From: Alphaproteobacteria bacterium
GTDB taxonomy: Bacteria > Pseudomonadota > Alphaproteobacteria > UBA828
Assembly (NCBI GenBank): GCA_965221125.1
Contig: CBDCRW010000004.1
Location: forward strand, 1,024,001 to 1,088,000
Reading direction: 5' to 3'
Length of the DNA stretch: 64,000 nt
Shown one piece after another: positions 7,079-33,176 of this stretch. The translations under genes were made by a program, and so were the position numbers. The notes under the pieces are model-generated. The model worked only from the letters and a program-made list of their open reading frames with translations, had not been told where the DNA came from and ran no database searches. Numbering within the stretch: position 1 is the first letter of the stretch; each line of letters starts with the position of its first letter.

Positions 7079-8490
7079 GCATGGCCGCCCGCGCCTTCGG
7101 CCGCCGCCCGCGGTCTGCCGTCCCGGCGCCTGCACCCAAGGCTGCGCGCGCGGCGCCGACGCCTGCCCCGGCCGCTGCCGCCGAGCAGACAACCCCGCCG
7201 CGCCCGCGCGGCCGGAGTAGCGGCGGGATCTCCGATATTGTGACCCGGATCCATCCGACGATCGTCAAGTCGCTCGACATGACCAAGATCGCGGAGCTCG
7301 ACAACGAGCGTCTGGCCTCGCAGCTTCTGGCGTTCCTGGAGACGGGCGAGGCAGGACTGCCGGACTTGAGCCCGCTGGACCGCCAGCAGGTGGTCACCCA
7401 GCTGGTCCACGACATCAAGGGCCTGGGTCCGATCGAGCCGCTGCTGCTGGACCGCAGGATCTCGGACATCCTGATCAACGGCATGGACTCGGTCTACGTG
7501 GAGCGGAACGGCCGGCTGCAGCAGGTTGACGTGCGCTTCCGCGACGCCGAACACCTTCTCCACATCGCCCAGCGGATCGCGGGCTGGGTGGGGCGCCGGG
7601 TGGACGAGTCCAACCCGATGGTGGATGCGCGGCTTCCCGACGGCTCGCGGGTAAACATCATCATCCCGCCGCTTGCGATCGACGGGGCCACGGTCTCGAT
7701 CCGGCGCTTCACGCTGAAGGGGATCGGGCTCGAGGAGATGGCCGAGCGCCAGGTGATGTCGGAGGCGATGGCGGAGGCCTTCCGTATCTGCGTGAAGGCG
7801 CGTCTCAACGTCCTGATCAGCGGCGGCACGGGCTCGGGCAAGACCACGTTCATGAACGCGATGTCGCAGCATATCGACCACGGCGAACGGCTGGTGACCA
7901 TTGAGGACGCGGCAGAGCTGCAGCTGCAGCAGCCGCACGTGGTGCGGCTGGAGACCCGGACCATGAGCGCCGAGGGCACCGGCGAAGTGACCATGCGCGA
8001 CCTGCTTGTGAACACGCTGCGGATGCGTCCCGACCGCATCATCGTCGGCGAGGTCCGGGGCGGCGAGGCGACCGAGATGCTGCAGGCGATGAACACCGGC
8101 CATCCGGGGTCGATGTGCACGCTGCATGCGAACAGCCCTCGCGATGCACTGACGCGTCTTGAGAACATGCTGATGATGGCAGGCACGGAGATGCCGCTGC
8201 CTGCGATCCGGCGCCAGATCGCATCGAGCGTCGACATGATCGTGCAGCTTGCGCGGCTTCGCACGGGTCACCGCTGCGTGACCAGCCTGACCAACGTGGT
8301 GGGTCTCGAGAACGACATCGTGACCACGGAGGAGCTCTGGCGGCGGCGTCCGACGGTGGACACGCAGCACATCTTCGAGACCTCCGGCAGGCAGCCGTCG
8401 TGGATGGAGGCGGTGGACGCGGTGAGCATGCGCGAGCCTCTCATGGCGGCGCTCAAGGCGGACCCCCGGATCGGGGAGACGCAGACGTGA
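7075..8490 (+). CDS. tadA: TadA/CpaF pilus assembly ATPase
   Basis: [21 protein letters not shown], Walker [49 protein letters not shown]. Confidence 0.97.
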
Positions 8491-11434: not shown

Positions 11435-12430
11435 ATGACGTCTTCGATGATTGTGCTGGCGGGCGTTGCGACCAGCGGGGTGGTGCTGATCCTGCTTGCT
11501 CCCCTCATCTTCGGGGAGACGCAGCGGGCGCGGCTTCTCGACCGGCGTCTCGCGATGGCGCGGCGGGAGGCGATGCGTGCGGTGCCGGGCTCTGGCGCCT
11601 CGGCGGTGGCTGCGGTGCAGCTTCGCTCCTTCGGACCGGCACTGCTCCAGGCGCTCTCGATGTTGGTTCCGGTGGGCGCACGGGAGCGTGAGAAGCTTAC
11701 GCGTACCTTGCGCCTTGCCGGGTTTGCGCGTCATGACGCGCTCTCGCTGTTCCTCTCGTGCAAGCTTGCCAGCAGCGTGCTCGGCGCCGGTCTCGCCGCC
11801 TTTGCCGCGCAGGCCATCGGTCCCGTGCTCGCGTTCCTTCCTCATGGCGCCCTTGTCGCGGTTGCGGGCGTGGCCGGGTTCGCAATCGGCGGCATCGTGC
11901 CCGAGTACGGAGTGCGCTCCCTGGTGAGCCGCCGGCAGCGCAGGATGAGCAGCGCGCTCCCCGATGCCCTCGACCTGATGACCATGTGCCTGGAGTCGGG
12001 TCTTACCTTCGAGCGGGCGCTCGCGACGGTGGCGGAAGAGCTGACCCCGATAGAGCCCGATCTGGCGGCCGAGTTCCGCGTCATCGAAGCGGAGCTGCGC
12101 GTCGGCGCCAATCGCCGCTCGGTGCTCCAGGCCTACCAGGAGCGCACCGACATCGAGGGTCTGAAGGATCTCGCGATGAGCCTGATCCAGGGCGACCGCT
12201 ACGGCACGCCGCTTACCCAGTCGATGAAGAACATCGCGGAGGGCGAGCGCGTGCAGCGTGCGGCCCGCATCTCGGCATGGGCGTCCAAGCTGCCGGTGTT
12301 GATGACGCTCCCCATGCTGCTGCTGGTGATGCCGGGGATCATGCTCCTGGTGGCGGGCCCCGGGGTGCTCTCGGCGATGAAGGCGCTCAGCGGACTGAGC
12401 TCTATTGGAGGCGGACCCAGTGTTGAATGA
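11435..12430 (+). CDS. tadC: TadC inner-membrane platform protein (T2SSF family)
   Basis: ALPDALDLMTMCLESGLTFERAL, LIQGDRYGTPL, ASKLPVLMTLPM; follows tadB. Confidence 0.93.
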   Translation: MTSSMIVLAGVATSGVVLILLAPLIFGETQRARLLDRRLAMARREAMRAVPGSGASAVAAVQLRSFGPALLQALSMLVPVGAREREKLTRTLRLAGFARHDALSLFLSCKLASSVLGAGLAAFAAQAIGPVLAFLPHGALVAVAGVAGFAIGGIVPEYGVRSLVSRRQRRMSSALPDALDLMTMCLESGLTFERALATVAEELTPIEPDLAAEFRVIEAELRVGANRRSVLQAYQERTDIEGLKDLAMSLIQGDRYGTPLTQSMKNIAEGERVQRAARISAWASKLPVLMTLPMLLLVMPGIMLLVAGPGVLSAMKALSGLSSIGGGPSVE

Positions 12431-12431
12431 G

Positions 12432-13385: not shown

Positions 13386-13387
13386 CC

Positions 13388-18521: not shown

Positions 18522-18645
18522 TGCCGGCACTCGTGCACCTGATCCAGCCTTGTGCCGGCGGACGGATCCGCCGGGCGATCGCCGCGTTCGGCGCGAAGCC
18601 TGCCGAATCCGGTTCGCAGTCGCATGGAAATAGTTGAGGAGACAC

Positions 18646-19119
18646 ATGGCCGACGTGGTCGTCCATATCGCAGAGGCTGCGGCGTGTGCTTTGTTCGCCG
18701 CGAGCGTCGCTACCGATGTGCGCCGCCGCGAGGTTCCGAACGCCGTTCCTCTTCTGCTGCTCGGCCTCTTTGCGGTCTACGCGGCAGCGGGCGCGGTGAG
18801 GCCTCTTGGGGACCTTTGGCAGCACATTGCGGTCGGCGCGATCATTCTCGCCGCCGGGTTCGGTCTCTTTCTGACGGGGCGCTTCGGAGCCGGAGATGCC
18901 AAGCTGTTCGCCGTGGCCGGTGTCTGGATCGGTCCTGCGCTCTCCCACCTGACCCTCTTCCTGTTCGGCATGGCGGCGTTCGCGCTGGCGCTCGTCGTGG
19001 CCGCCCTTCTGCCCTTCGAGAGGATGCGGCGCATGCGCAAGGAGCTGCCGTTCGCGGTCGCGATCGCCCCGCCGGCCGTGATCGTCCTGGCTCTGCGGGC
19101 GCTCTCGGACGGGATATGA
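18646..19119 (+). CDS. cpaA: Prepilin peptidase TadV/CpaA (peptidase A24)
   Basis: Catalytic Asp motifs ATDVRRREVPN and FGAGDAKL, C-terminal LPFAVAI; RBS gaggag before ATG 18646. Confidence 0.93.
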   Translation: MADVVVHIAEAAACALFAASVATDVRRREVPNAVPLLLLGLFAVYAAAGAVRPLGDLWQHIAVGAIILAAGFGLFLTGRFGAGDAKLFAVAGVWIGPALSHLTLFLFGMAAFALALVVAALLPFERMRRMRKELPFAVAIAPPAVIVLALRALSDGI

Positions 19120-19137: not shown

Positions 19138-20073
19138 ATGAGACGCTACCGCACCGTCATCATCATCGCGCTGATGGGCATTGTTCCCATGGTCGCGGCC
19201 GTGTTCGTGATGCGCTTCATCCTCCCTGCCGCCGAGCCGGTTCAGGCGCCGCCGCCCGTGCAGCAGGCAGCGGCGGCGCCCGCGCCGGTCGTCGAGGAGG
19301 AGCCGGACGAATTCATGGTGCTCGCGGCCGCGCGGGCGCTGCCGGTGGGCACCCTGCTGGACGAGCAGCATCTCACCGAGGTCGGCGTCGAGGAAGACAG
19401 CGTCAGGCGCTGGCATATCGGGACCGAGGACCTGGAGCCGGACGAGATGCCCTACGGCCACGTGGTGCGGCAGGCGATTTCAGCCGGCGCGCCGGTGACC
19501 CGGCAGTCCCTGGTGGGGCCCCGGCAGCGGGGCTTCCTGGCGGCGGTGCTGAAGCCCGGCATGCGGGCCATCACCGTCAGGCTCGGGGCCGGCACGCGCC
19601 ACTCGGGCCTGGTCGACCCGGGCGATCGCGTGGACGTGGTGCTGACGGCGCAGTCGCGCGATCGGGGCGAGCAGAACGTGCTTGCGCGCACGATCCTTGA
19701 GGACGTGCGCGTGGTTGCCGTGGACCGCCGCATCGGCAGTGCGGCGGGCGCTGCGGAAGGCGGCGGCGAGGTCGAACGCACGGAGATTGTGACCGCGACC
19801 CTTGAGGTTCTGCCCTCTCAGACGGGTCTGCTTGCGCTTGGAGAGCTGGAGGGGGAGCTCTCGCTTGCGGTGCGCCCGCTGGCGGCGGCCGGAGCACCGG
19901 CGGAGCCGGCGGACGTTGTGGACATGCGGAGCCTTCTGGCGCTGCCGGAGGAGAACCTGCAGCAGAAGACGGTGCGGGTCGTGCGGGGCAGTCAGGTCAC
20001 AGACGTGACTTTCGGCAACGCGCCCGGGCCTGCCCCCTTCAACGAGGCAGTGGCCGATGCAGGCCTCGAGTGA
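19138..20073 (+). CDS. cpaB: CpaB/RcpC pilus assembly protein (stand-alone copy)
   Basis: N-terminal TM, SAF domain (VLAAARALPVGTLL), [35 protein letters not shown]. Confidence 0.93.
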   Translation: MRRYRTVIIIALMGIVPMVAAVFVMRFILPAAEPVQAPPPVQQAAAAPAPVVEEEPDEFMVLAAARALPVGTLLDEQHLTEVGVEEDSVRRWHIGTEDLEPDEMPYGHVVRQAISAGAPVTRQSLVGPRQRGFLAAVLKPGMRAITVRLGAGTRHSGLVDPGDRVDVVLTAQSRDRGEQNVLARTILEDVRVVAVDRRIGSAAGAAEGGGEVERTEIVTATLEVLPSQTGLLALGELEGELSLAVRPLAAAGAPAEPADVVDMRSLLALPEENLQQKTVRVVRGSQVTDVTFGNAPGPAPFNEAVADAGLE

Positions 20074-20189: not shown

Positions 20190-21998
20190 TTGAATACCGA
20201 GAAGCTGTTCACCCGCGCCGTCACGGCGCTCCCTCAGGCGATCAGGAAGCGACTGGACAGCGGCGCGCCGCTCGACTGGACGATACTGGAGGACCCCAGG
20301 ACCGGAGCCAGGCTCGCCGAGGCGGGGCGCGTGCATGCGCGCCTGCCGGAGGCCGTCGAGGTCCTTGCGAACCGTCTGGTGAACGAGACCGGTATCGTGC
20401 CCGCCGACCTCGTCCGGGGCACGGAGCGGCAGACGGATGCCGCCGCCTGGATCCGGCAGGCCTCGATCGAGTCGGAGGGCGAGAGCTACTGTATCCGCAG
20501 TCGCCTCAGCGGCGAGGTCCATACTGGCGTCCGTCCGGAGGCCGTTGCCGGCTACGCGGTTCTGGCGCTGGAGCTTGCGGCGGCGGTGCACGAGGCGGTG
20601 GACCGCTGGATCGAGGCCGGCGAGCGGCACAGGACGGTGGACGGCGGGACGACGAGCCTTCTCGGGCTCTACGCCGTGCGCATGCTGGAACACCTGCGTC
20701 CCTCCTCCGGGAGCGGTCCCGATCGCCGGACGGCGGCAGAACTCGCTGCCGCACTCGACCGGACCTGGAACACTCAGGAACTCAAGACACGCGCCGCACT
20801 GTCCGCTATCCGTCTGCGCAACGTCCGGGGGGCGCATGCGCCGCGGCGGAGCTACTACGCACCGATGACGGGCTACCGCCTGCATTCGTTCGATCCGGGC
20901 GAGATCCGGTGGTTGTGGACTCTTGCCGAGCAGGCGATCGAGGCGGCCAGTATGGACGTCAAGAAGAAGCAAGAGGAGGAGCGACCCGCCGCGGCCCGCC
21001 CGCCTGCAGCGGCGCCTCCCCCGAAACTTCCCCCGACCGAAGCCTCGGATTCGAACGACATTTCCGCACTGGAGGCGCGCATCAGGGCGGCGAACGAAGA
21101 GACCGCCAGACTGCTTCAGCTCGGGTCGCCGGTCGAGGAGTTGGCTCCGGAGCGGGAGCTGAGCGGCCTCAGGGAAGCTGCGGAGAGGCTTCCGGACGCG
21201 GTGCGTCGGCGGATGCGCGAATCCAACGGTATCGGCTTCGCCCATGCGCTGTCGCGGCTGCGCAACACCGAGGATTCCGCTGCGGTCCGGGCGGAGCTGG
21301 GGTCCGCGTTGGCGAAACAGAGCGTTCCCCGCTGGCTGGAGGAGCTTGCCACAGCGCTGCTGGCCGACGCGGGCGCACAGAGCCGCGAGGGCACACGGAC
21401 GGGTGGCCTGCGGCTGCATGCGGAAGAGGAACCGGAGGCCGGGTATCGCGCGGTCGAGATCGAAGGCGGTGCAGCCGGGCGGATCACGGCCCTCGGGCTG
21501 ATCGAGCAGGTTCGCCTCGGCCTCTCCTTCGCCACGGACGCATGGCGGGGCCAGACCGCGATCCGCAGCGCGGGCAAGGAAGGCGGCTGGATCCTGGACA
21601 AGGGGGAGGCTGAAGGCAGCGCATTCTCTGAGAGCGAACGAGAGACCCTGGAGGCAGCACGGCAGATGGAGCAGGTGTTGGACCGCATTCAGCGCGGCCG
21701 CGGCACCGACGCGCCGACGGCGCTCGAGGAAGCGTCCATGACCGCGGGCACGTTCAGGGGGATCGGGGCTGCGACGCGCACGGCCGCAGGCTGGCCGGGA
21801 AGCGCCGAGGCTCCGGACCCCCGTGTCCCGGGCGACGTCGAGCGTATCGCGGCTGTCTCGGAGGCGTTGCACGAGCGGATCCGCTCGATCGCCAACAAAC
21901 ACATCGCGAGCTGGATCGCGGGCAACGGAGATTCCGGGGTCGGCAGGAACGGCCGCCCGGCCACGGGCCAGGACGACGGCCGCCGCACCACGGTGTGA
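20190..21998 (+). CDS. Hypothetical protein (602 aa)
   Basis: TTG start with agggag RBS, co-directional, helical composition; no family recognised. Confidence 0.6.
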   Translation: MNTEKLFTRAVTALPQAIRKRLDSGAPLDWTILEDPRTGARLAEAGRVHARLPEAVEVLANRLVNETGIVPADLVRGTERQTDAAAWIRQASIESEGESYCIRSRLSGEVHTGVRPEAVAGYAVLALELAAAVHEAVDRWIEAGERHRTVDGGTTSLLGLYAVRMLEHLRPSSGSGPDRRTAAELAAALDRTWNTQELKTRAALSAIRLRNVRGAHAPRRSYYAPMTGYRLHSFDPGEIRWLWTLAEQAIEAASMDVKKKQEEERPAAARPPAAAPPPKLPPTEASDSNDISALEARIRAANEETARLLQLGSPVEELAPERELSGLREAAERLPDAVRRRMRESNGIGFAHALSRLRNTEDSAAVRAELGSALAKQSVPRWLEELATALLADAGAQSREGTRTGGLRLHAEEEPEAGYRAVEIEGGAAGRITALGLIEQVRLGLSFATDAWRGQTAIRSAGKEGGWILDKGEAEGSAFSESERETLEAARQMEQVLDRIQRGRGTDAPTALEEASMTAGTFRGIGAATRTAAGWPGSAEAPDPRVPGDVERIAAVSEALHERIRSIANKHIASWIAGNGDSGVGRNGRPATGQDDGRRTTV

Positions 21999-22041
21999 AG
22001 GGCGTGAGCGTCCCCGGCAGTGGGAAAGAGTGGAGGAGACC

Positions 22042-23127
22042 ATGACCAGGATTGCCACGGCCCTCGTGGCCGTCGCGGTATTGGCGGGAGTCCTGTTGTC
22101 TGCCGCCGCAGCGGTCGCCGACACCCTCGACCGCGCGCTCACGCTCGCCGCCGAGGGACGCTATCCGGAGGCACGGCGGGTTCTCGATCCCCTGCTGGAT
22201 AACGAGCCGGGCAACGCGCAGCTGCGGCTGCTGCACGGGGTCCTTCGAGTGCAGGAGGGACACAGGGGCGAAGCGATCGCCGTCTTCTCCGGACTCGCGC
22301 GGGAGTTCCCCGACATGTTCGAGGCGCACAACAATCTCGCGGTGCTCTACGTGGACGAAGGCCGGCTGGAAGAGGCGCGGGCGGTCCTGGCGGCAATTCT
22401 GGAACGGCGCCCGGAGGCCGTGGGCTACCGCAACCTGGGCGAAGTCTACGAGAAGCTTGCGAGGCGTGCCTATGCGCAGAGCCGTGCGCTCCGCGACGAC
22501 AGGTCCAGGGATGGAGATGACGACGGCGACTCCGGCACGGAGGTCCTGCAGGCGAGCGATGCGGCCGGTACCGTCTCCGAGCCTGCGACCGCGTTGGAGC
22601 CGGCATCCGGCAGCGAGCCGCCCGCGGTTCCCGAAAGGCCGGCGCCGGCCGAGGAGGCGATCGCGGCGGCCTGCCTGGCGACGGGGGAGTTCCTGGACAT
22701 GGGCACTGTCGAGGAAGCACGGCTGTGGCTGGCGGCGCTCGGCGCGGAAGCAACGCGTGTCTCGAGCGGCACTCGCGAGAGAGTCAAGGACTACCGTGTC
22801 TACCTGCCGCCCTTCGAGAGCCGCAAGGCTGCCGACGCGGCGCTCGGGGATCTGAGCGAGAAGGGCGTGAGCGACATTGCGGTGATTCCAAAGGGTGCCA
22901 GGAAGAACGCCGTCTCTCTGGGCATTTACGCCAAAGAGGCGAACGCGTCGCGGCGGGTGGCACGGTTGGAGGAGCTCGGCTACGCGCCCGTGGTGGAGCC
23001 CAATTCCATGGCGGTCGAAGAGCACGCCACGATCAAGGCGCGCCTTCCCGGCGGCTTCGAGGACCTGCGCGATGCCTGGGCGTCGAGTTTCCCTGACCAC
23101 GCTGTGCGGCAGGTGGAATGTGACTGA
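22042..23127 (+). CDS. Secreted TPR + SPOR-like domain protein
   Basis: RBS ggaggag; signal peptide; TPR motif FPDMFEAHNNLAVLY...YRNLGEVY; C-terminal YRVYLPP...NAVSLGIY...RRVARLEELGY resembles SPOR-type domains. Confidence 0.78.
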   Translation: MTRIATALVAVAVLAGVLLSAAAAVADTLDRALTLAAEGRYPEARRVLDPLLDNEPGNAQLRLLHGVLRVQEGHRGEAIAVFSGLAREFPDMFEAHNNLAVLYVDEGRLEEARAVLAAILERRPEAVGYRNLGEVYEKLARRAYAQSRALRDDRSRDGDDDGDSGTEVLQASDAAGTVSEPATALEPASGSEPPAVPERPAPAEEAIAAACLATGEFLDMGTVEEARLWLAALGAEATRVSSGTRERVKDYRVYLPPFESRKAADAALGDLSEKGVSDIAVIPKGARKNAVSLGIYAKEANASRRVARLEELGYAPVVEPNSMAVEEHATIKARLPGGFEDLRDAWASSFPDHAVRQVECD

Positions 23128-23161
23128 ACTCCCCGCCAGGAAATCGTCCCGGAGCCCGATC

Positions 23162-26100
23162 ATGAATACGGCACACACCGACAGATATCCGGTCCCGGCC
23201 AAACCCGGGCAACCCCGAGCGCGCTTTTCGGTTTCGCCGTTCGAAGCCATCCGGCGCGCCGCGGCGATGGCTGCCGTTCTGTTCTCTCTTTCGGCCTGCT
23301 GGGGACTGTCCGGGGAGAGCCGCTCGCCAGGAGGCGAGCAGCTGCTGCAGAGCAACCTGTCGGTCGCATCCGCCGCGCTCGCGGCCGGCCAGCCGGCGGT
23401 TGCGCACAAGCTCTATCTGGCGCTCGCCGAGCGCTTCGACGACGCGCCCGAGCCGGTCCTCGGGCTTGGCTACATCGCCCTGCAGACGGAGAGGCCCGGC
23501 GAGGCCGGCGACCACTTCAGACGGGCCGCGAAGCTGTCGGACGATGCGCCCGGCTTGCGGGCGGAGGCGCTGCTCGGTGCCGCCCGCGCATCCCTGGCGC
23601 AGGGCGACAGCTCTGCCGCACGGCACCACCTGGCGGCAGCACGCGACCTTGCGGAGGATTCCTCGACGATCGCCTGGATCGAGAACGGCCTGGCCGTCGC
23701 TGCGGTCTTCGAGGAAGACTACCGGACCGCCGAGGCCCACTACGCAAGCGCTCTCCGCCAGCCGTCCGCCCATCCCCGCATAGCAGCCAACTTCATCCGC
23801 ATGCTCATCGCGTCCGGGCGCATCGACGTGGCGGAGCGCACGTACGGGGCCTACGCAACGTCCTATTGGGATGAAGGCGACCGGCATGCCTTGCAGAACC
23901 TGATCGGCGAGGCGAGGCGCCTGTCGCCGCCGCCCAACCGCTTCGATCCGCGCCTTCTGTTGCGGCTGACTGAGATGAAGGCGCTCCCTGACCCGGCGGA
24001 CGCCCCAGCGTACCCCGCAGACGGCGGCCTGCGCACCGGCCCGGAGGGACCCGTGCTGACGATCGGGGGCCGCTTGTTCCCGGCTACACCGGCGACGATG
24101 GCCGCGAGGCCCGCGGCGACACCGGCAGCACCCGTCCTGTCCGAACCGCCACTGGAAGAGACAGCAGATCCCGTCCCGACCTCCAAGCGAAGCGCGCCCG
24201 AATACCAGCCCTCTGTTGGGGAGCGCGGGTCGCCGCGGGCTGCAATCCCCGCCCTCGCGGCTGCACTTCCCCGCGAGGTCCCAGCGTCGTCAGTCACTCG
24301 ATCCGGCTCCTCTTCGTGGTCCGACGTACTCGTGCTGCGCATCGATCCTGAGGGCACATCACGCGAAGGAATATTGGAAGTCGATGCGCCGGTCGAAGGC
24401 CCACCTTCAGCGACATCTACCGATGAGCGGCCACCGGGCAATGCGGAGACCGATGCGGTGCCGGTGGAGGACGTACTTCCAATTGACGGCGCGCTCCGCA
24501 GCGGTTTGGTGCTGGTTGTGGCGTCCTCGCATGCTCAGGTCTCGCCCGGCTCCGCCGTGCCGGACTTCGACGCGGCCACGAGCACACCGGGGGCGCCCCC
24601 GCAGGTCCACGAACCCGGGGCGGTCCAGGCCGCCGGCATCCCTTCCGCAACCGCCGGGGTCGAGCAACAGGCGCACCGATTGGAGGCCGACCCGGTGCAG
24701 TCCGCTAACGCGCTTCTCTTGACCGTTTCCCCCCACGACGGTCCGCCACTGCGGGACAACGCGTCCCTGCGGGCCCCGTCTTCATCGGCCTCCCTCTCGC
24801 GCGAAGCCGGAGCGACCAGCGCAACACTCAAGAGTGAAGCACCCGAGGGTGCACCGCCCGAGGGCGCATCACACGTCGCGGCGGCACAGGCTTCGGGCCT
24901 GCAGTTGGCCACGATCGAAGGCGCGGGCGGAACGCACCGGTCCGAACCCGGCCCGACGCTGGTCGTAAACGTAGCGATCCTGAACGACTACTCGAACTAC
25001 GACCCGTTTTCCGCTGCACCTGCCGCCCATCGTCCCTTCCTGCTCGCCTCCGCCTCTTCGCCGTACATCGACCCGTTGTGGGAATCGGTGTGGATGCCGA
25101 AAGGGAGCGGAGCGGGCTTTCATACCTTTGCGGCGGTTGAATCGGAGAGCCACGACGACTGGCTTCCGCAGGTTGCCGAGACGGCACCGCCGGAGCCGGC
25201 TCGGAGCGACGAATGGACAGTTCTGCTGGGAACGGGCCACAGGCTCACTCTTGGCGTCGACGCTGCGGCGGTCGCGATTGCGTCTCCCGAGATTGCCGAC
25301 GTCCAGCTGCTTACGCCTCGGGTTCTGTTCGTCATGGGGCGGAACCTGGGCCGTACCACCGTCTCGGTACTCGGCGAGGACGGGTCCGTATTCGAGCGGG
25401 ACGTGTCGGTCGTTCTGGATATTGAGCCCCTGCGCGCGCTGTTGGCCGGAGAGCCCGGCCTGCAAGGGGTGCAGGTGGAAAGCCTCACCCGCGGCGTTGC
25501 CCTGGCCGGGGATGTCGACTCGCAAGAGGCGGCGGATCGGGCGCTCGGTCTCGCGACGGTATCGCTCCCCGAAGGCACTCTGGTCGAGAACAACCTCGAC
25601 GTCGGGTTGGATCTGGAGCCGTTGCGGGCCCTCCTCGCGGGCGAGCCCGGCTTCGCCGATGTTGCGGTCAAACGGGTCGGCCGGGGCGTGGCGCTCACCG
25701 GCGAGGTCGCCTCGGCAGAGTCCGCCGACCGGGCGCGTCGGCTGGCCTTGACCGCGGTTCCGGAAGGCCTCCCGGTGGAGAATAACCTTCGGGTGATTAT
25801 CGACATCGAGCCTCTTCGTACGGTTCTGGCCGCAAAGCCGGGGCTCGATCGAGTTCAGGTACAGCGTCTGGCCCGCGGTGTGGCACTTGCAGGCGAGGTG
25901 GACACACCGGAGGCTGCCGACCGCGCCCTTCGTCTGGCCGCAGCCTCTCTGCCGGAAGGCGTGCTGGTGGAGAATAATCTGAACCTGATCCTCGATCTCT
26001 TGCCGCTGAAGGCGCTCCTTGCTGCCGAGACCGGACTGGCCCACGTTCATGTGCGGCAGGTGGCTTGGGGTGTCGCTCTGGCCGGCGAAGTCGCTTCGGC

Positions 26101-29100
26101 GCGGTCCGCCGACTTGGCGCATCGGCTTGCGGTCGCCTCTCTCCCTGAGAGCGTGCCGGTGGAGAACAACCTGCGGGTGGTGGACCTTGAGCCGCTGCGC
26201 GCTGTTCTGGCCGGGGAGGCCGGCCTGCGAGGCGTGCGCGTGGAGAGCCTGACGCACGAGGTCGCACTTGTGGGCGAAGTCGCCTCGCCGGCTCTGGTGG
26301 ACCTGGCGGTCCGTCTCGCCGCCGACTTTCTACCGGAGAGCGTACCGGTGGAGAACAACCTGCGGGTAGTGGACCTTTCGCCGCTGCGCGTGCTTCTGGC
26401 GGGCGAGCCCGGACTTGGAGGCGTTGAGGTCCGCCGGCTCGGTCGGGGCGTGGCGCTCGCCGGTGAGGTTGCCTCGGCAGAAACATCCGAAAGGGCGCAC
26501 AGCCTCGCCTTGGTCACGCTTCCAGAAGACCTGCCGGTCGAGAACAACCTTCGAATCGTGTTCGACACCGGGCCCCTGCTCGAGATCCTGGCGGGCGAGC
26601 CCGGTCTCGAGCGGGTGCGGGTGCAGCGTCTCGCCCGGGGAGTCGCTCTGTCGGGCTACGTCGATTCGCCAGTTGCGGCTGAGCGCGCGCGCGGTCTGGC
26701 TTCCGCGTCTCTCCCGGAAGGCTTGGCGGTGCAAGACAATCTGACCGTAGGCCTGGGCCTTGAGCCGCTTCGTGAACTCCCGGCCGGCGAGCCCGGCCTG
26801 GACGATCTCGCGCCGCTGCGCGTCTTCATCACCGAGGAACCTGGCCTAGAGGGCGTCGTGGTGCGGCGCGTCGGCCGCGGCGTCGCGCTGACGGGCGAGG
26901 TGGCTTCGGTAGAGGATGCCGAAAGGGCACGGCGGCTGGTCGTGGCCGCTTTGCCGGAGACCGTTCCGGTGGAGAACAACCTGCGCGTGGTGCCGGACAT
27001 CGAGCCCCTGACCACCGTCTTCGCTTCGGAGCCCGGACTGGAAGGCGTGCAGGTGAAACGCCTCCCACGTGGCGTCGCCCTCGCGGGGCACGTCGACTCG
27101 CAGGAGGGGGCGGACCGGGCGCTCGGTCTCGCGACGGCGTCGCTCCCGGAGAACACGCTGATCGAGAACAACCTCGACATCGGGCTGGACCTGGGGCCGC
27201 TGCGGGCGCTGCTCGCGGGCGAGTCCGGCTTCGCCGATGTCGAAGTCCAGCGGGTCGGCAGGGGCATAGCGCTCACCGGCGAGGTCGCTTCGCCGGAGGT
27301 TGCCGATCGCGCACACCGGCTTGCCGCAGCCTCGCTACCGGAAACCGTTCCGGTAGAAAACAGCCTGCGTGTCGAGTTCGATATTGTGCCGCTGCGTGTG
27401 CTTCTGGCCGGAGAAGCCGGTCTGGAACGCGTGCAGGTGCAGCGGCTTGCCCGGGGCGTGGCCCTGTCAGGCTACGTCGAGTCGCCGGCCGCGGCGGAGC
27501 GCGCGCTCGGTCTGGCCTCCGCATCTCTTCCGGAAGGCTTGCTTGTCGAGGACAATCTGACCGCAGGCCTTGGTCTCGAGCCGCTTCGTGCACTCCTGGC
27601 CGGCGAGCCCGGTCTGGACGACCTCTCGCCGCTGCGCGCTTTCATAGCCGGCGAGCCCGGTCTCGAGGGCGTCGAGGTGCAGCGGGTCGGCCGGGGCGTG
27701 GCGCTCACCGGCGAGGTCGCTTCGGCAGAGGATGCCGAAAGGGCACGTCGCCTTGCCGTGGCGGCTCTCCCGGAGGGCGTTCCGGTGGAGAACAACCTGC
27801 GGGTGGTGTTCGACATCGTGCCTCTGCGTGTGCTTCTGGCCGGAGAAGCAGGCCTGGATCGCGTGCATGTCCAGCGGCTCGCCCGGGGGGTGGCCCTTGC
27901 GGGCTACGTCGGCTCACCTGCGGCGGAAGACCGCGCGCTTCGGCTTGCCGCCGCCTCCCTGCCGGAAGGCCTGCTGATCGAGAACAACCTGGACGTGGGG
28001 CTGGACCTCGATCCGCTGCGCGTACTGCTGATCGGCGAGCCCGGCCTCGATAGCGTCGCGGCACGGCGCGTGGGCCGGGGCGTGGCGCTCACCGGCGAGG
28101 TCGCTTCGGCGGACGCTGCCGATCGGGCACATCGGCTTGCAGTGGCCTCGCTCCCCGAGAACCTGCTGGTGGAGAACAACCTGCGCGTGCAGTTCGACAT
28201 CGAGCCCCTGCGCGCTGTCCTGGCGGCCGAGCCGGGCCTGGAAGGGATCCAGGTGCGGCAGCTCGCGCGAGGCGTGGCGCTCGCCGGCGAGGTCGCCTCG
28301 CCGGAGGCCGCAGATCGGGCCTCTCGGCTAGCCGCCGCCTCTCTGCCGGAAGGCCTGATCGTGGAGAACAACCTTGAGGTGGGTCTGGACCTGGAGCCTT
28401 TGCGCGCTCTCATGTCGGGCGAGAGCGGTCTCGAAGGCGTCGAGGTGAGGCGCATCGGCCGGGGCGTGGCGCTCACGGGCGAGGTCGCTTCGGCAGACGC
28501 TGCCGATCGGGCGCACCGTCTGGCAGTGGCCTCCCTTCCCGAGAGCCTCCTGGTGGAGAACAACCTGCGCGTGCAGTTCGACATCGAGCCGCTTCGCACT
28601 GTCCTCGCTGCGGAGCCCGGCCTGGAGCAAGTCCGCGTACAGCGGCTAGCGCGAGGCGTGGCGCTTGCCGGCGAGGTCGCCTCGCCGGAGGCCGCGGACC
28701 GGGCGCACCGTCTGGCCGTTGCCTCACTGCCGGGTGGCCTGCTGGTCGAGAACAATATGAGCGTGGTTCTGGACCTCGTGCCGCTCCAGGCGCTCATGGC
28801 CGGCGAGTCCGGCCTGAAGGGAGTCGAGGTGCAGCGGGTCGGCCAGGGCGTGGCGCTCACGGGCGAGGTCGCTTCGGCAGAGGCGTCCGACCGGGCGTAC
28901 CGTCTGATCGCAGCCTCTCTCCCCGACAGCCTGCCGGTGGAGAACAACCTTCGGGTGGTGTTCGACATCGGTCCGTTGCGCGCGGTTCTGGCCGGCGAGC
29001 CCGAACTGGACCGCATCCAGGTGCAGGAGCTGGGCAGAGGCGTCGTGCTGACCGGCGAGGTCGCTTCGGCGGAGGCGTCGGACCGGGCACACCGGATCGC

Positions 29101-31288
29101 CACGGCGTCGCTCCCGGAAGGCGTGCCGGTGGAGAACAGCCTGCGCGTGGTCCCGGACATCGAACACCTGCGCGCGGCCCTGGCCGGCGAACCCGGACTG
29201 GATCGCGTTCAGGTTCAGCGGCTCGCGCGCGGCGTGGCGCTTTCCGGCGACGTCGACTCGCATGCGGCGGAAGGCCGCGCACTCCGGCTGGCGGCAGCCT
29301 CACTTCCGGAAGGCGTGCCGGTGGAGAACAACCTGCACGTGGGACTGGACCTCGCGCCTCTGCGCTCGCTGGTGGCCGGCGAGCGCGGTCTGAAGGACGT
29401 TCGTGTGCAGCGGACAGGCCGCGGTGTTGCGCTCATCGGCGAGGTGGGTTCGGCCGAGGCGTCCGATCAGGCCTCCCGCCTCGCGGCCGCGCTTCTCCCG
29501 GAAGACATGCCTGTCGAGAACAACCTGCGCGTGGTGTGGGACGTGGAGCCGCTGCGCGCGCTTCTGGCCGGATCGCCCGATCTGGAACGCGTGCAGGTTC
29601 AGCGCCTTGCGCGTGGCGTCGTGCTCAGCGGGGATGTCGACTCGCATGCGACGGCCGACCTGGCGCTTCGCCTGGCTGCGGCATCCGTGCCGGAAGGCGT
29701 TCTGGTGGAGAACAACCTGAACGTGCGACTGGACCTGGCGCCACTGCGGGTGCTCATTGCAGGTGTACCGGACTTGCGCAACGTCCGGGTGAAACGGATC
29801 GGACGGGGCGTGGCGCTCTCGGGCGAGGTGGGCTCGGCGGAAGCGTCAGATAGGGCACTTCGGCTCGCCGTGGCCTCGCTGCCCGAGGGTATTGCGGTCG
29901 AGAACGGCCTGCGCATAGCGCCGGATGTCGAACCGCTGCGGGCGCTCCTGGCCGGGGAACCCGGTCTTGAGCGGGTGCACGTGCAGAAACTCGCGCGTGG
30001 CGTCGCGCTGGCCGGCGATGTCGCTTCGCCGAAAGCCGCAGACCGGGCGCTGCGTCTTGCCGCCGCTTCCCTGCCCGAAGGCATGCTGGTGGAAGACAAC
30101 CTGAACGTCGGGTTGAATCTTGCGCCTCTCGAAGCGCTCATGGTTGCGGAGGAGGGCTTCGAGAGCATCCGCCTCAACCGGATCGACCGAGGCGTGGCGC
30201 TGACCGGCGAGGTGGGGTCGCAGACGGAAGCGGAACGTGCTGCCCGTCTTGCGGCTGCCACGCTCCCTGAGGACGCTCTGGTCGAGAACAACCTGCGCGT
30301 GGTGCTGGATTCCGGACCTCTTCGTGCGGCCCTTGCGGGTGATCCGGAGTTCGACCGCGTCCACGTGCGCGATCTTGGGCATGGCGTATCGCTGAGCGGC
30401 GAGGTCAGCTCGGCTGCGGCCGCCGATCGGGCGCACCGACTTGCCGCCGTTTCGCTGCCTGCGGACACGCTGGTGGAGAACAACCTGCGCATCGCCGGGC
30501 CCCTGCAGGTGAACCTGGAGGTGCAGATCGCGGAGGTGCAGCGCTCCATCGCCGAGGAATTCGGGTTCAACTGGGAGCTCTTCGGACGTTCTGCCGAGGG
30601 GGATCTGGGAGGCAGCTTCCGGATCGGACGGCAGAACAGGACCGAGCAAGCCATGGTGGACGGATTGCCGTCGCCGTCCCTCATTCTATCGAGAACGTGG
30701 GAAGAGATCGGCATTACCGGCATGGTCGATGCACTTGCGAAAGCGGGCCTTGCTAACGTGCTGGCCCGGCCCAACGTCACCGCCAACTCGGGCGAGACCG
30801 CGTCCTTCTTCTCGGGTGGTGAGTTTCCGCTGCCGTCCGGCTTCAAGGACGGGGTGATCGTCTTCGAGTACAAGAAGTACGGTGTCGTTCTGGACTTCGT
30901 ACCGACGATCGTTGACGACGGCAGGGTCGAGCTTACGGTTCGTCCCGAGGTTTCCGAGCCCTCGCAGGATAACTCGGTGCAGGTTGCCGGCGGCGTCAAC
31001 GTCCCCGTGATCAACGTGCGCCGTGCCGAGACTACCGTCGAGATGGGCGACGGCGAGTCGATCGTGATCGCAGGGCTCTTCAGCAGCACCTCGAACGAAG
31101 TGCAGTCGGGGGTGCCGGTGCTCAAGGATCTGCCGCTGCTCGGTGCGATGTTCGGACACACCTCGACCCGGGCGGACGAGCTGGAGCTGATCGTCACCGT
31201 GACCGCCCGCCTGGTGCAGGCCGGGCCCGCGCCGGGCGACGCGATCACGGCCGGATCCGGACAAGCCAACAACAGTTACTACTACTGA
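23162..31288 (+). CDS. cpaC: Giant RcpA/CpaC secretin: TadD-like TPR lipoprotein N-terminus, Pro/Ala linker, pilus-formation N domain, 26 BON-like repeats, secretin domain
   Basis: Lipobox VLFSLSA-C; TPRs; IASPEIADVQLLTPRVLFVMGRNLGRTTV; 26 repeats ending VENNL; QVNLEVQIAEV, LARPNVTANSGETASFFSGGEFP, RRAETTVEMGDGESIVIAGL, VPVLKDLPLLGAMF. Start uncertain (23120 or 23162). Confidence 0.9.
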   Translation: MNTAHTDRYPVPAKPGQPRARFSVSPFEAIRRAAAMAAVLFSLSACWGLSGESRSPGGEQLLQSNLSVASAALAAGQPAVAHKLYLALAERFDDAPEPVLGLGYIALQTERPGEAGDHFRRAAKLSDDAPGLRAEALLGAARASLAQGDSSAARHHLAAARDLAEDSSTIAWIENGLAVAAVFEEDYRTAEAHYASALRQPSAHPRIAANFIRMLIASGRIDVAERTYGAYATSYWDEGDRHALQNLIGEARRLSPPPNRFDPRLLLRLTEMKALPDPADAPAYPADGGLRTGPEGPVLTIGGRLFPATPATMAARPAATPAAPVLSEPPLEETADPVPTSKRSAPEYQPSVGERGSPRAAIPALAAALPREVPASSVTRSGSSSWSDVLVLRIDPEGTSREGILEVDAPVEGPPSATSTDERPPGNAETDAVPVEDVLPIDGALRSGLVLVVASSHAQVSPGSAVPDFDAATSTPGAPPQVHEPGAVQAAGIPSATAGVEQQAHRLEADPVQSANALLLTVSPHDGPPLRDNASLRAPSSSASLSREAGATSATLKSEAPEGAPPEGASHVAAAQASGLQLATIEGAGGTHRSEPGPTLVVNVAILNDYSNYDPFSAAPAAHRPFLLASASSPYIDPLWESVWMPKGSGAGFHTFAAVESESHDDWLPQVAETAPPEPARSDEWTVLLGTGHRLTLGVDAAAVAIASPEIADVQLLTPRVLFVMGRNLGRTTVSVLGEDGSVFERDVSVVLDIEPLRALLAGEPGLQGVQVESLTRGVALAGDVDSQEAADRALGLATVSLPEGTLVENNLDVGLDLEPLRALLAGEPGFADVAVKRVGRGVALTGEVASAESADRARRLALTAVPEGLPVENNLRVIIDIEPLRTVLAAKPGLDRVQVQRLARGVALAGEVDTPEAADRALRLAAASLPEGVLVENNLNLILDLLPLKALLAAETGLAHVHVRQVAWGVALAGEVASARSADLAHRLAVASLPESVPVENNLRVVDLEPLRAVLAGEAGLRGVRVESLTHEVALVGEVASPALVDLAVRLAADFLPESVPVENNLRVVDLSPLRVLLAGEPGLGGVEVRRLGRGVALAGEVASAETSERAHSLALVTLPEDLPVENNLRIVFDTGPLLEILAGEPGLERVRVQRLARGVALSGYVDSPVAAERARGLASASLPEGLAVQDNLTVGLGLEPLRELPAGEPGLDDLAPLRVFITEEPGLEGVVVRRVGRGVALTGEVASVEDAERARRLVVAALPETVPVENNLRVVPDIEPLTTVFASEPGLEGVQVKRLPRGVALAGHVDSQEGADRALGLATASLPENTLIENNLDIGLDLGPLRALLAGESGFADVEVQRVGRGIALTGEVASPEVADRAHRLAAASLPETVPVENSLRVEFDIVPLRVLLAGEAGLERVQVQRLARGVALSGYVESPAAAERALGLASASLPEGLLVEDNLTAGLGLEPLRALLAGEPGLDDLSPLRAFIAGEPGLEGVEVQRVGRGVALTGEVASAEDAERARRLAVAALPEGVPVENNLRVVFDIVPLRVLLAGEAGLDRVHVQRLARGVALAGYVGSPAAEDRALRLAAASLPEGLLIENNLDVGLDLDPLRVLLIGEPGLDSVAARRVGRGVALTGEVASADAADRAHRLAVASLPENLLVENNLRVQFDIEPLRAVLAAEPGLEGIQVRQLARGVALAGEVASPEAADRASRLAAASLPEGLIVENNLEVGLDLEPLRALMSGESGLEGVEVRRIGRGVALTGEVASADAADRAHRLAVASLPESLLVENNLRVQFDIEPLRTVLAAEPGLEQVRVQRLARGVALAGEVASPEAADRAHRLAVASLPGGLLVENNMSVVLDLVPLQALMAGESGLKGVEVQRVGQGVALTGEVASAEASDRAYRLIAASLPDSLPVENNLRVVFDIGPLRAVLAGEPELDRIQVQELGRGVVLTGEVASAEASDRAHRIATASLPEGVPVENSLRVVPDIEHLRAALAGEPGLDRVQVQRLARGVALSGDVDSHAAEGRALRLAAASLPEGVPVENNLHVGLDLAPLRSLVAGERGLKDVRVQRTGRGVALIGEVGSAEASDQASRLAAALLPEDMPVENNLRVVWDVEPLRALLAGSPDLERVQVQRLARGVVLSGDVDSHATADLALRLAAASVPEGVLVENNLNVRLDLAPLRVLIAGVPDLRNVRVKRIGRGVALSGEVGSAEASDRALRLAVASLPEGIAVENGLRIAPDVEPLRALLAGEPGLERVHVQKLARGVALAGDVASPKAADRALRLAAASLPEGMLVEDNLNVGLNLAPLEALMVAEEGFESIRLNRIDRGVALTGEVGSQTEAERAARLAAATLPEDALVENNLRVVLDSGPLRAALAGDPEFDRVHVRDLGHGVSLSGEVSSAAAADRAHRLAAVSLPADTLVENNLRIAGPLQVNLEVQIAEVQRSIAEEFGFNWELFGRSAEGDLGGSFRIGRQNRTEQAMVDGLPSPSLILSRTWEEIGITGMVDALAKAGLANVLARPNVTANSGETASFFSGGEFPLPSGFKDGVIVFEYKKYGVVLDFVPTIVDDGRVELTVRPEVSEPSQDNSVQVAGGVNVPVINVRRAETTVEMGDGESIVIAGLFSSTSNEVQSGVPVLKDLPLLGAMFGHTSTRADELELIVTVTARLVQAGPAPGDAITAGSGQANNSYYY
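25415..30495 (+). repeat. 26 diverged ~192-bp repeats (64-aa BON-like domain) plus two 17-aa partial units
   Basis: Consensus DxEPLRALLAGEPGLxxVxVxRxxRGVALxGEVASxEAADRAxRLAxASLPExxxVENNLxV, counted by eye in the translation. Confidence 0.93.
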
Positions 31289-31328
31289 GGACGGTGCCGC
31301 CGTGCAGTTTCTCCTCCTGGAGTACGCA

Positions 31329-31988
31329 ATGAGGAACACGCGCCCGATAGATGTCCCCGCTTCGCGGGAGAGAGATGCAGCCGCCCCCGCGGTGGCCTCG
31401 ACTCCTGCCGCAAACCATCCTGCCGGGACGCGTCTCCGCAATGCGGCCGTGCCAGATCCGAATGCCGGCTCAATTCCGGCGGGCTTCCTCTCCCTCCGCG
31501 GCGATATCCCGGATGGAGAGCGCCCGCCTGACCGACGCAACGCAGGAAACATTGTCGTGCCCGACCTCCCGACCCGCAGCCGTCCAGCCGCCATCACCGC
31601 CGCCCTGTGTGTCGTCGTCGTTCTCGGCGGCTGCCAGGAGCGGCTGGCGCAACGCGATACCTACTTCGCTCCCCTGCGCGGCTTGAGCGCCTCTCTGCAT
31701 GCGGAGACGGAGCACGTGCTGGATTATCATCAGGCCATGCAGGCCGCGCTGCATGGATGCAGCAAGAGCCAGCGCGCGACTGCAACACCGAGCGTCATGG
31801 GGCCGGCGAACGTGGTGCCGGAGGGAGCGTTGGATCCCGACGCGCAGGCGCGGCTCTGCGCATCCTCCGGGATCACGCATGCTACGCACGGGGCGCCGTT
31901 GAACGGCTACCGGCGTTGGGTGGGAGACCAGGTCCGCGAGTTGCCCGCGCCGTCCGAGACGGCCTCCTCGATCGGAGGCGGCTCTTGA
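31329..31988 (+). CDS. Putative lipoprotein in the cpaD/rcpB position
   Basis: Hydrophobic stretch and lipobox ALCVVVVLGG-C; lies between secretin and cpaE; RBS ggag. Confidence 0.55.
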   Translation: MRNTRPIDVPASRERDAAAPAVASTPAANHPAGTRLRNAAVPDPNAGSIPAGFLSLRGDIPDGERPPDRRNAGNIVVPDLPTRSRPAAITAALCVVVVLGGCQERLAQRDTYFAPLRGLSASLHAETEHVLDYHQAMQAALHGCSKSQRATATPSVMGPANVVPEGALDPDAQARLCASSGITHATHGAPLNGYRRWVGDQVRELPAPSETASSIGGGS

Positions 31989-32021: not shown

Positions 32022-33176
32022 GTGAGCGCGATCATGGCACTTTCGCCTGACAGCCTCTACGCGCGAGCGTTCGCTTCGGATGGCGAGACGCTGCGGGCGC
32101 TTCGTACCGGGCTCGAGGGCCGCAAGGCGAGGATCCAGCGCGGACGTCTCGCAGCGGCGCTACGCACGCTCGCGAGCGAACCGGCCTCCAGGGTGCTGTT
32201 CGTCGACCTCGACGGCATCGCGGAACCTGGCTCAGCCGCTCGGGAGCTGACGGCGGTGTGCGCCTTCGAGACCGCCGTGATCGCCATCGGCTCCATCGAC
32301 ACGGCTCAGTACACCCGGGAATTGTTCCAGCAGGGCATCGCCGACTATCTGGTCAAACCCGTATCCGCCTCCCTTGTGCGCGAAGCCTGCGCGGCGGTGA
32401 CGGATGATGGTACCGAGCGACCCTACGCAGGACGGGTGGTCGCGTTCGCGGGCAGCGCGGGCAGCGGGACCTCCACCCTTGTAGCCGCGCTCGCCCGTAC
32501 CATCGGCGCCGAAGGACGGACGGTGTCGGTGGTCGATCTCGATCCGATATCCGGACGGCTTCCCGCGCTGTTGGGCTCCGAGCCTGCCGAGGGTCTTCCG
32601 GCGCTACTTGAAGCGTTGAGCGCTCAGGCCGGGAACGACACCGATGTGGGCGCGGCAGCCGACCAGATCGACGGCGTATGCATGCCCGTCGATGCCCAGG
32701 TGTCACTGTTCGCCTACGCTCCGGATTTGGCCCTTCCGGCAGCACCTTCGTCGGTCTCGGTACTCAGGTTGCTCGGGCACCTCGCCAACCGGACGCACCT
32801 GGTGCTGGTGAGAGGGTTCCCGGATCCCGTCACGCAGCTCGACATCATGCAGCAGACCGACGCCCGCGTGCTGCTCTACGAACCGACGCTGTCCAGCCTG
32901 AGTGCTGCGGTTCGATGCCTGGCCCTTCTTGGTACGAGCCACCCCGCGACCTTGGTGCAAAGCCTGCCGAGGATGCCGCGAAGCGCGTTGTCGCCGGCGC
33001 ATATCCGCTATGCGTTGGGCGACCGCAAACCCGACATCGTGGTGCCCTTCGATTCCGCAATTCACGCGGAAGCCACCGAGGGCAGGTCGAAGCAGCCCGG
33101 ACGGGCGTGGCACAACGCCGTGCGGCAAGTGCTGGATCGTATCCTCGAGAGCGCCGCCGTGCCGCAGGGAGATTGA
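32022..33176 (+). CDS. cpaE: CpaE/TadZ-like protein, normal-sized copy
   Basis: Receiver-like VLFVDLDG, QGIADYLVKPV; RVVAFAGSAGSGTSTLV...VSVVDLD. Confidence 0.85.
   Translation: MSAIMALSPDSLYARAFASDGETLRALRTGLEGRKARIQRGRLAAALRTLASEPASRVLFVDLDGIAEPGSAARELTAVCAFETAVIAIGSIDTAQYTRELFQQGIADYLVKPVSASLVREACAAVTDDGTERPYAGRVVAFAGSAGSGTSTLVAALARTIGAEGRTVSVVDLDPISGRLPALLGSEPAEGLPALLEALSAQAGNDTDVGAAADQIDGVCMPVDAQVSLFAYAPDLALPAAPSSVSVLRLLGHLANRTHLVLVRGFPDPVTQLDIMQQTDARVLLYEPTLSSLSAAVRCLALLGTSHPATLVQSLPRMPRSALSPAHIRYALGDRKPDIVVPFDSAIHAEATEGRSKQPGRAWHNAVRQVLDRILESAAVPQGD

Follow-up and report, generated by a model that had tools for sequence, protein, structure and literature searches.

The 64,000-nucleotide stretch of DNA analysed here (the window; positions 1,024,001 to 1,088,000 of contig CBDCRW010000004.1, from an alphaproteobacterial genome of the UBA828 lineage) encodes a giant secretin of the RcpA/CpaC (Tad) type, most probably the outer-membrane channel of a Tad/Flp-type pilus machine. 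The protein is about five times the usual size for a Tad outer-membrane channel and carries a TPR lipoprotein module at its N-terminus and 26 tandem BON repeats ahead of its secretin domain. The gene is almost certainly real and functional, and giant secretins of this kind occur in a small clade of uncultured sponge-associated Alphaproteobacteria. As for the statement taken jointly, i.e., that this is a functional Tad/Flp-type secretin with a built-in pilotin and an extended stalk of 26 BON domains, we consider its chances to be even. An earlier reading of the same DNA, made from the letters alone (the original prediction), had proposed this arrangement; the architecture and the rarity that it described are supported here, its built-in pilotin is plausible, and its very long periplasmic conduit is an inference only.

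Domain architecture of the giant secretin

All features described below lie on the forward strand and are numbered along the window. The frame 22895..31288 is stop-free over 2797 codons, and its likely start is the ATG at 23162, the first past the upstream stop (23127; a gap of 35 nt), which yields a protein of 2708 amino acids (aa) and bears out the uninterrupted open reading frame of about 2,700 aa described earlier. The order of its parts is lipobox, TPR domain, Ala/Pro/Ser-rich linker, T2SS-T3SS_pil_N domain, 26 BON repeats, secretin domain and aromatic C-terminal tail. The signal peptide and lipobox L-S-A-C (aa 1-46, with Cys46 as the lipobox cysteine; 23162..23299) can be read in the sequence and in the alignment of homologs. 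They are followed by the TPR domain (aa 47-310; 23300..24091), structured over about aa 56-256 in 11 helices according to AlphaFold2 (AF2) and Foldseek, and matched by Pfam TPR_19 (E 3.6e-6, aa 184-231, over its cut-off) and TPR_16 (aa 69-130, under its cut-off). The linker (aa 311-683; 24092..25210) stands out by its composition (17% Ala, 13% Pro, 12% Ser), by its codon substitution pattern and in the AF2 model, in which the predicted local distance difference test score (pLDDT) drops below 50 at the linker start. The Pro/Ala/Ser character given in the original prediction holds, while the length of about 400 aa becomes 373 aa when measured.

Downstream of the linker lie the Tad-type secretin N-domain T2SS-T3SS_pil_N (aa 684-750; 25211..25411; Pfam E 6.8e-13, 48.6 bits against a cut-off of 23) and, beyond the BON array, the secretin domain (aa 2443-2685; 30488..31216). 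The latter contains the Pfam Secretin match (PF00263; E 1.8e-40, aa 2524-2685, 138.7 bits against a cut-off of 27.5), and the best match of the giant secretin in the PDB is RcpA (8odn_A, E 5.7e-37). Several NCBIfam secretin models match partially, all under their cut-offs. The profile of the single-BON relatives is collinear with residues 20-436 of the solved 502-aa Tad-type secretin 8jvb_A. The protein closes with a tail ending in N-S-Y-Y-Y, whose last aromatic residues are conserved (31217..31288, stop codon included). The lipobox, TPRs, CpaC-type N-domain and canonical secretin of the original prediction are thus all recovered, the first by reading the sequence and the domains by the Pfam scan. 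Early in the secretin domain, a variable loop (window 30634-30659) has 24 bases replaced by 69 others in one sponge-metagenome run, and the same short and long forms occur among database homologs.

The array of BON repeats

The array (aa 751-2442; 25412..30487) contains exactly 26 BON units, a count on which a motif scan and a hidden Markov model (HMM) built from the repeats agree. Its period is 64 aa, with two units of 63 aa, and it is interrupted by two 16-aa partial-repeat inserts near aa 1195 and aa 1467. The general Pfam model of the BON domain (PF04972) reports 19 stretches at E 1.5e-110, detecting 19 of the 26 units, while the NCBIfam two-BON model ArfA_OmpATb_N gives 14 matches (E 4.1e-84) and Tandem Repeats Finder returns DNA periods of 192, 384 and 432 at 67-79% matches. 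The repeat consensus retains an invariant G-V..L.G.V core, i.e., the conserved glycine-containing BON core. Pairwise protein identity between units averages 61% (range 42-85%), in keeping with the 26 diverged 64-aa repeats first reported, and the units are old copies. Units two apart are 66% identical, compared with 58% for neighbours, which indicates a period-2 alternation and hence a two-unit super-repeat. The array is strongly acidic, with 243 Asp+Glu against 161 Lys+Arg.

Four consecutive units, aligned in 20 in-register rows, were modelled with AF2. The model has a pLDDT of 89.4, predicts a helix-strand-strand-helix-strand (alpha-beta-beta-alpha-beta) fold for each repeat, and keeps a pLDDT of at least 82 over all junctions, with no dip in confidence. 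Its top Foldseek matches are YscD (E 2.4e-8), OsmY, CdsD, DolP, BonA and the PrgH/MxiG rings, so that the modelled repeats resemble BON and ring-building domains. The BON fold had been named in the original prediction as a test of its reading, and the AF2 model and its matches (OsmY, DolP, BonA, YscD) agree on that fold.

Evidence that the gene is genuine

The window sits on a 1.12-Mb contig of a 4.58-Mb genome that is assembled in 7 contigs and is 92% complete. Ratios of nonsynonymous to synonymous substitution rates (dN/dS) were obtained by codon comparison with two orthologs, L001 (96% identity) and L002 (84%). The two values are 0.24 and 0.19 for the BON array, 0.09 and 0.07 for the N-domain, 0.09 and 0.18 for the secretin domain, and 0.32 and 0.23 for the TPR domain, and all folded parts of the giant secretin are under purifying selection. 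The linker, at 0.57 and 0.60, is relaxed, as expected of a disordered sequence.

A database of 5.8 billion clustered proteins yielded 42 that share these domains, at lengths of 1505-3852 aa; the window's own protein is one of them, and all are without a name. HMM and motif checks show that 24 of the 41 others are complete from lipobox to tail and fused in one frame, the remaining 17 being truncated or chimeric; the 24 complete homologs hold 9, 11, 15, 16, 18, 19, 20, 21, 24, 25, 26, 27, 28, 30, 36, 39 or 42 BONs. One database entry retrieved as a homolog, P0029, is a chimera that ends in the staphylococcal-nuclease-like protein of the same locus. Congeners assembled in 4-7 contigs carry about 27 and about 42 BONs.

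Most of the window is also present in public sequencing runs of four studies, two of them on sponge metagenomes, one on a marine metagenome and one other. Contigs of three public runs cover all 30 bins of the gene, contigs from the two independent sponge-metagenome studies tile it, and inside the array contigs of three studies match collinearly over pieces as long as about 2 kb. Among all contigs of the four public runs compared, none spans the whole array, and the number 26 therefore rests on the assembly itself. Run X1 also has a low-depth joint that skips 4785 bases (depth 3, side 21), but its support is too thin for it to be considered. In an RNA run from a sponge sample (X15), eight short contigs match the gene or its vicinity at 90-98% identity; as DNA carry-over is not excluded, they are at most a weak hint that the gene of a relative is transcribed.

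These data bear on the possibility that the giant size is an artefact of assembly or annotation, or that the gene is decaying. Besides the lack of a spanning contig, this explanation can draw on near-identical repeats in some database homologs (e.g., P0011), which could mis-assemble from short reads, and on the state of some congener copies: one (L017, G034:C3), with 42 BONs, has one frame change inside its array (~9530-9727), which reflects either a sequencing error or a recent inactivation and counts against a functional gene, and two other copies lie in broken frames. In the window, however, the repeats are diverged, the frame is open for 8.1 kb, the array is under purifying selection, and the collinear contigs come from three studies, while the genome stands in only 7 contigs and several near-complete congeners have arrays of similar length. 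Because the repeats are diverged, the array dN/dS is 0.19-0.24, 24 homologs are complete and contigs tile the gene, we consider an artefact or decay extremely improbable.

Distribution and evolutionary history

A HMMER search of 1.84 billion representatives, with the last two BONs and the secretin domain as query, gave 31,859 matches at E 0.001 or better. At the top stand seven representatives of the multi-BON family, followed by a sister group of 577-1082 aa with one BON and 55-69% identity over the BON and secretin domains, and then by a third tier of ordinary CpaC-like proteins, which measure about 440-550 aa, carry at most one BON and are about 40% identical. Most of the sister group has a lipobox, the same conserved TPR start and an aromatic tail, typically G-Y-H-Y; the tails of ordinary relatives read, e.g., F-I-V-E or F-M-V-E.

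The fused TPR occurs in 7 of the 49 genomes of the window's taxonomic order, all of them in its genus, where it is found in 7 of 21 species, the window's own included. Other genera of the family have frames of 476-546 aa at about 40% identity. Within the genus, the open frames at the locus measure 2800 (the window's own), 2876, 2828 and 3411 aa; copies in broken frames number two in genome G034 and one in G035, and in genome G026 the syntenic locus encodes a form of 955 aa with 3 BONs. Genome G025 carries both a giant copy (the 2876-aa frame) and a 762-aa single-BON, TPR-fused paralog (L015, G025:C96 9985-11916) that adjoins its own CpaE-like gene. The survey of BON copy number across homologs that the original prediction had called for gives 9-42 in the complete giant homologs, 3 in the G026 form, and one or none in the shorter relatives.

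Since the sister clade has the same fusion and the same tail with only one BON, the fusion to the TPR lipoprotein is the older event and the BON expansion the later one. The number of BONs is also very labile.

The TPR module and the C-terminal tail

Across 36 aligned homologs, the lipobox Cys46 is nearly invariant and Asp never follows it. By the E. coli sorting rule, the lack of Asp would send the protein to the outer membrane. AF2 models the TPR module (aa 47-310, 23 aligned sequences) as 11 helices, and its pLDDT exceeds 90 across model residues 10-210. Foldseek against the PDB returns TPR superhelices; designed consensus TPRs take ranks 1-2, and the type IVa pilotin PilF of Pseudomonas takes ranks 3 and 10 (template modelling score 0.64-0.67 by target length), PilF being the best natural bacterial match. 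A sequence profile searched against the PDB retrieves PilF at 4.1e-9 and TadD (8odn_B) at 3.1e-6; as whole single-BON proteins were part of the underlying alignment, secretins were returned as well. With phmmer, the N-terminal 313 aa find only marginal PilF matches in the PDB (E 0.07).

The extreme C-terminus carries an aromatic pattern, G/S/K-[YF]-[HYR]-[YF]. Among the new representatives of the HMMER search, 83 of 146 had a scorable C-terminus, and the aromatic tail is present in 14 of the 18 that are TPR-positive as against 10 of the 65 that are TPR-negative, half of these 10 being fragments that lack the N-terminus. As the proteins scored are kin, this is a co-occurrence within a clade and provides no independent replication. 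The nearly invariant polar residues R142, N175, N210 and R213 fall on model helices 5, 7 and 9, which, by our reading of the W-x-x-x-G signature, would be the A helices that line the groove.

The precedent is TadD, which the available part of Tassinari et al. (PMC10499894) describes as a PilF-like TPR lipoprotein that is required for secretin assembly and whose groove binds the last four or five residues of RcpA. The conserved tail of the fused clade echoes this binding. By this analogy, a built-in pilotin is the role that we favour for the TPR module, with a probability only slightly better than even.

The tad locus around the secretin

The giant secretin is the only PF00263 match in the genome and is surrounded by an almost full tad locus, in which CpaF, TadB/C, RcpC and a prepilin peptidase are all encoded. 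The locus includes genes for a CpaF/TadA ATPase (7075..8490; Pfam T2SSE E 1.6e-66), a TadC-like platform protein (11435..12430; T2SSF 4e-16), a CpaA/TadV-like prepilin peptidase (18634..19119; Peptidase_A24 E 1.8e-14, over its cut-off) and RcpC/CpaB (19138..20073; RcpC 6.7e-26, syntenic in 5 of 7 related loci). These are followed by a conserved 602-aa protein without known family (20190..21998; no Pfam match, syntenic in 6 of 7 loci) and by a secreted TPR and SPOR protein that is not a lipoprotein (22039..23127; TPR_19 1.2e-14, SPOR 2.7e-10), directly ahead of the secretin. Behind the secretin come a small putative lipoprotein with an L-G-G-C lipobox read in the sequence and an uncertain start (31302..31988; syntenic in 6 of 7 loci) and a CpaE/TadZ-like protein of the ParA/MinD type (32022..33176; weak P-loop Pfam matches, syntenic in 7 of 7 loci). 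Immediately beyond the upstream edge of the window are TadE-like and TadG-like genes that score a little under their Pfam cut-offs. A tentative candidate for the pilin is a divergent Flp-type open reading frame of 76 aa (1507..1737; Pfam Flp_Fap only E 0.86); when all six translated frames of the window were scanned for the classical Flp motif, it was not found.

Of the 7 related loci compared, 5 preserve the order RcpC, 602-aa gene, TPR and SPOR gene, secretin, lipoprotein and CpaE, and the G026 locus preserves it only from the 602-aa gene onwards. The 602-aa protein has no signal peptide, and its gene also precedes the TPR and SPOR gene in the 3-BON locus. The possibility that the fused TPR is a copy of that neighbouring TPR and SPOR gene is ruled out (best BLASTP E 8.4).

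Several further features of the locus stand on their own. A 1005-aa frame (8400..11417) combines an RcpC/CpaB domain (aa 213-328; Pfam RcpC 1.4e-19) with a TadB-like T2SSF domain (aa 838-959; 5.3e-15) across a long Ala/Pro-rich linker, with about ten tandem A-P-V-R-A units near its start; such a fusion of an alignment-complex protein to a platform protein is unusual. Directly upstream of CpaF, the window encodes a 1417-aa protein with no Pfam match (2825-7078), which over its final ~390 residues shares 33-34% identity with the CpaE-like proteins encoded in related loci; the locus thus has a second, giant CpaE/TadZ-like protein. The platform genes are separated from the peptidase and RcpC genes by three genes (12405-18521) for a MauG-like di-haem peroxidase, a DAHL-domain histidine kinase and a 1112-aa He_PIG Ig-like protein, an arrangement kept in the loci L001 and L003. 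A staphylococcal-nuclease-like gene (33200-33925) directly follows the CpaE-like gene and is kept in 5 of 7 related loci. Farther away, 8-17 kb past the window end (G000:C4:1095836-1105532), two more T2SSE-type ATPase matches and a second A24 peptidase match possibly belong to another pilus-like or secretion system, though the genome shows one secretin.

Proposed mechanism and alternative explanations

The data above show the gene, its domains with their folds and the selection on them, the genomic setting and the spread of the family; in the mechanism that we propose, we infer that the TPR module acts as a pilotin, that the rings stack and how long the structure would be. The protein would be exported, then lipidated at Cys46, and its TPR module then placed at the outer membrane, while the C-terminal domain would build a pore of 12-14 subunits. 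Much as TadD does with RcpA, the TPR module may grip in its groove the aromatic tail of the subunit to which it belongs or of the one next to it. The single BON/N3 domain that lies between N-domain and pore in relatives would have been multiplied to 26 tandem copies, which, in a 12-14-mer, may align as an extended stalk of stacked rings under the pore. The N-domain, which would dock onto the RcpC alignment complex, would thereby end up far from the pore, and the disordered 373-aa linker could act as a tether by which the TPR module, bound to the membrane, spans the way back from the N-domain end. Such a tether would be needed because the secretin N-terminus points to the inner membrane while the fused pilotin is on the membrane side.

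Tether lengths fit this picture. All 38 proteins with at least 9 BONs have a tether of 352-442 aa; in the 19 proteins with at most 3 BONs, the median is 34 aa (range ~0 to 446), and the syntenic 3-BON ortholog of G026 has an 81-aa tether. That long arrays always come with long tethers suggests that the N-domain lies far from the pore and that the array is extended, not collapsed. As rough estimates, a stack of 26 domains would measure about 65-90 nm, assuming 2.5-3.5 nm per 64-aa domain, and the contour of a 373-aa chain, about 130-140 nm, would be enough for the tether. To an extended stacked structure under the pore we give somewhat less than an even chance. The array may be accommodated by an unusual envelope around the machine, may be turned sideways as an anchor or buttress, or may project together with the outer membrane.

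Several observations weigh against parts of this reading. As regards the pilotin, TadD is not among the 50 Foldseek matches listed for the TPR module, generic and designed TPR proteins outscore PilF and TadD by far in the sequence profile, and the Caulobacter TadD ortholog CpaO is dispensable, according to the accessible part of a recent preprint (bioRxiv 10.1101/2025.11.05.686773), which indicates that the pilotin role is not universal in Tad systems. As regards the stalk, the predicted template modelling score of the four-repeat model is only 0.60. The tether does not scale with BON number in the giant clade (440 aa with 9 BONs, 436 aa with 47 BONs), the single-BON protein P0060 has a 446-aa tether, and the association of long arrays with long tethers may reflect one or two evolutionary events, not many. 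The estimated stack length is well beyond an ordinary periplasm, and the number of BONs ranges from 1 to about 42 among the species of one genus, at a locus that is otherwise the same, which argues against a fixed ruler of envelope width and is hard to square with a rigid tube of that kind. Lastly, no Flp pilin (PF04964) was found at E 0.001 or better in the genome, which is 92% complete.

The lability of the array is what would be expected of a loosely constrained length, and so fits the alternative that the BON array is a flexible or laterally spread anchor on the inner leaflet of the outer membrane or on the cell wall, i.e., a buttress or spacer of freely drifting size and no conduit for a pilus. 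The BON domains of DolP bind phospholipid (Bryant et al., PMC7806268, in the part available), the fold matches of the repeats include OsmY, DolP and BonA, the two-unit alternation and the 14 ArfA_OmpATb_N matches fit dual-BON units, and the acidic charge of the array speaks in the same direction. However, the domain at the same position in ordinary Tad secretins is the ring-forming N3, as described in the available parts of two studies (bioRxiv 10.1101/2025.11.05.686773; PMC10499894), and the far end of the array is occupied by the N-domain, which has to make contact with the alignment complex of the inner membrane (PMC12307814, in the portion accessible); the confidently modelled junctions between repeats and the constant pairing of long arrays with long tethers also speak against an anchor. 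We regard such an anchor as somewhat unlikely. To the boldest version of the stacked structure we likewise give a low probability: in it, the 26 BON rings, or up to about 42 in relatives, would form a rigid tube of tens of nanometres (an estimated 65-90 nm for 26 rings) that either takes the pilus across an unusually thick envelope or sheath or holds the pore on a projection covered by the outer membrane, its length being tuned from species to species by the gain and loss of repeats and the secretin piloting itself.

A further alternative is that the channel has been co-opted for something else than an Flp pilus, possibly the export of a large surface protein encoded in the locus. The lack of an Flp pilin at Pfam significance would agree with this, as would the unusual genes of the locus, namely those for the 1112-aa Ig-like He_PIG protein, the 1417-aa protein and the 602-aa protein without known family, and Tad-type secretins have been recruited elsewhere, e.g., RhcC2 in the rhizobial type III secretion system (T3SS), as the available part of Abby and Rocha (PMC3459982) reports. 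The secretin is nevertheless flanked by a full set of Tad assembly genes, with the A24 peptidase over its cut-off and the TadE-like, TadG-like and 76-aa Flp-like candidates under theirs, and no other export machine is seen in the locus, so that a takeover is improbable.

Significance and comparison with known systems

Secretins are the common outer-membrane gates of type II and type III secretion, type IV pili and filamentous phage export, and their periplasmic part normally consists of one to four small ring domains. The natural series of 1, 3 and up to about 42 ring domains, at one syntenic locus in one genus, offers a test of the role of these domains, and can reveal if they stack, what length a periplasmic channel may reach, and how a pilus machine keeps its outer-membrane and inner-membrane halves joined. 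Together with its matching C-terminal tail, the fused TPR lipoprotein would serve as a one-gene model of secretin-pilotin recognition, and a rigid tube of BON rings, if true, would be a new structural class of trans-envelope conduit. As the hosts are uncultured sponge-associated bacteria, the structure may bear on host attachment by symbionts with unusual envelopes.

The closest known systems are the RcpA/CpaC secretins (Pseudomonas RcpA, PDB 8odn; Caulobacter CpaC), which share with the giant secretin the order of pil_N (VirB9-like), BON/N3 and secretin domains, and the giant secretin likewise lies in a tad locus near RcpC. Among the relatives searched, they are usually about 440-550 aa long with no or one BON, against 2708 aa and 26 BONs here, a difference in size that leaves the homology unaffected; the original prediction had given about 450-550 aa and one or two BONs. 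The giant secretin adds to this plan the N-terminal lipoprotein TPR module, the 373-aa linker and a different C-terminal tail. In the parts of these sources available, CpaC and RhcC2 have one N-terminal BON domain (Abby and Rocha, PMC3459982), an N3 domain separates the pore of other RcpA homologs from their VirB9-like N-domain (Tassinari et al., PMC10499894), Caulobacter CpaC is described in a cryo-electron tomography preprint as a pore with a classical N3 and a VirB9-like domain (bioRxiv 10.1101/2025.11.05.686773), and RcpC forms the periplasmic alignment complex that meets RcpA (Evans et al., PMC12307814). "BON + secretin" is among the main BON architectures, with 476 UniRef100 entries that are mostly alphaproteobacterial, and Table 1 of the same study, in the part covered, contains no multi-BON secretin (Bryant et al., PMC7806268). 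Our searches of the open literature found no description of a tandem or multi-BON secretin or of a giant one, in agreement with the earlier statement that no such Tad system has been described.

The TPR module resembles TadD (PA4299) and PilF/PilW in its lipoprotein signal, its size and, probably, its about five TPRs, although its sequence similarity to TadD and PilF is no better than to generic TPR proteins; TadD and PilF/PilW are separate polypeptides, whereas the module is fused into the secretin chain. The single-BON TPR-fused secretins (P0048, P0050, P0060) have the same lipobox, TPR start and aromatic tail as the giant, and differ from it by their one BON, their length of 640-1080 aa and mostly short tethers. 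With the dual-BON proteins OsmY and DolP, the array shares the BON fold and has a two-unit periodicity, but these are small soluble or lipid-anchored periplasmic proteins without a channel domain. In SctD of the T3SS (YscD, PrgH, CdsD) and in the N1-N3 domains of GspD of the type II secretion system, small tandem alpha/beta domains that are likewise BON-like are arranged in stacked periplasmic rings, with three such ring-building domains each, against the 26 of the giant secretin.

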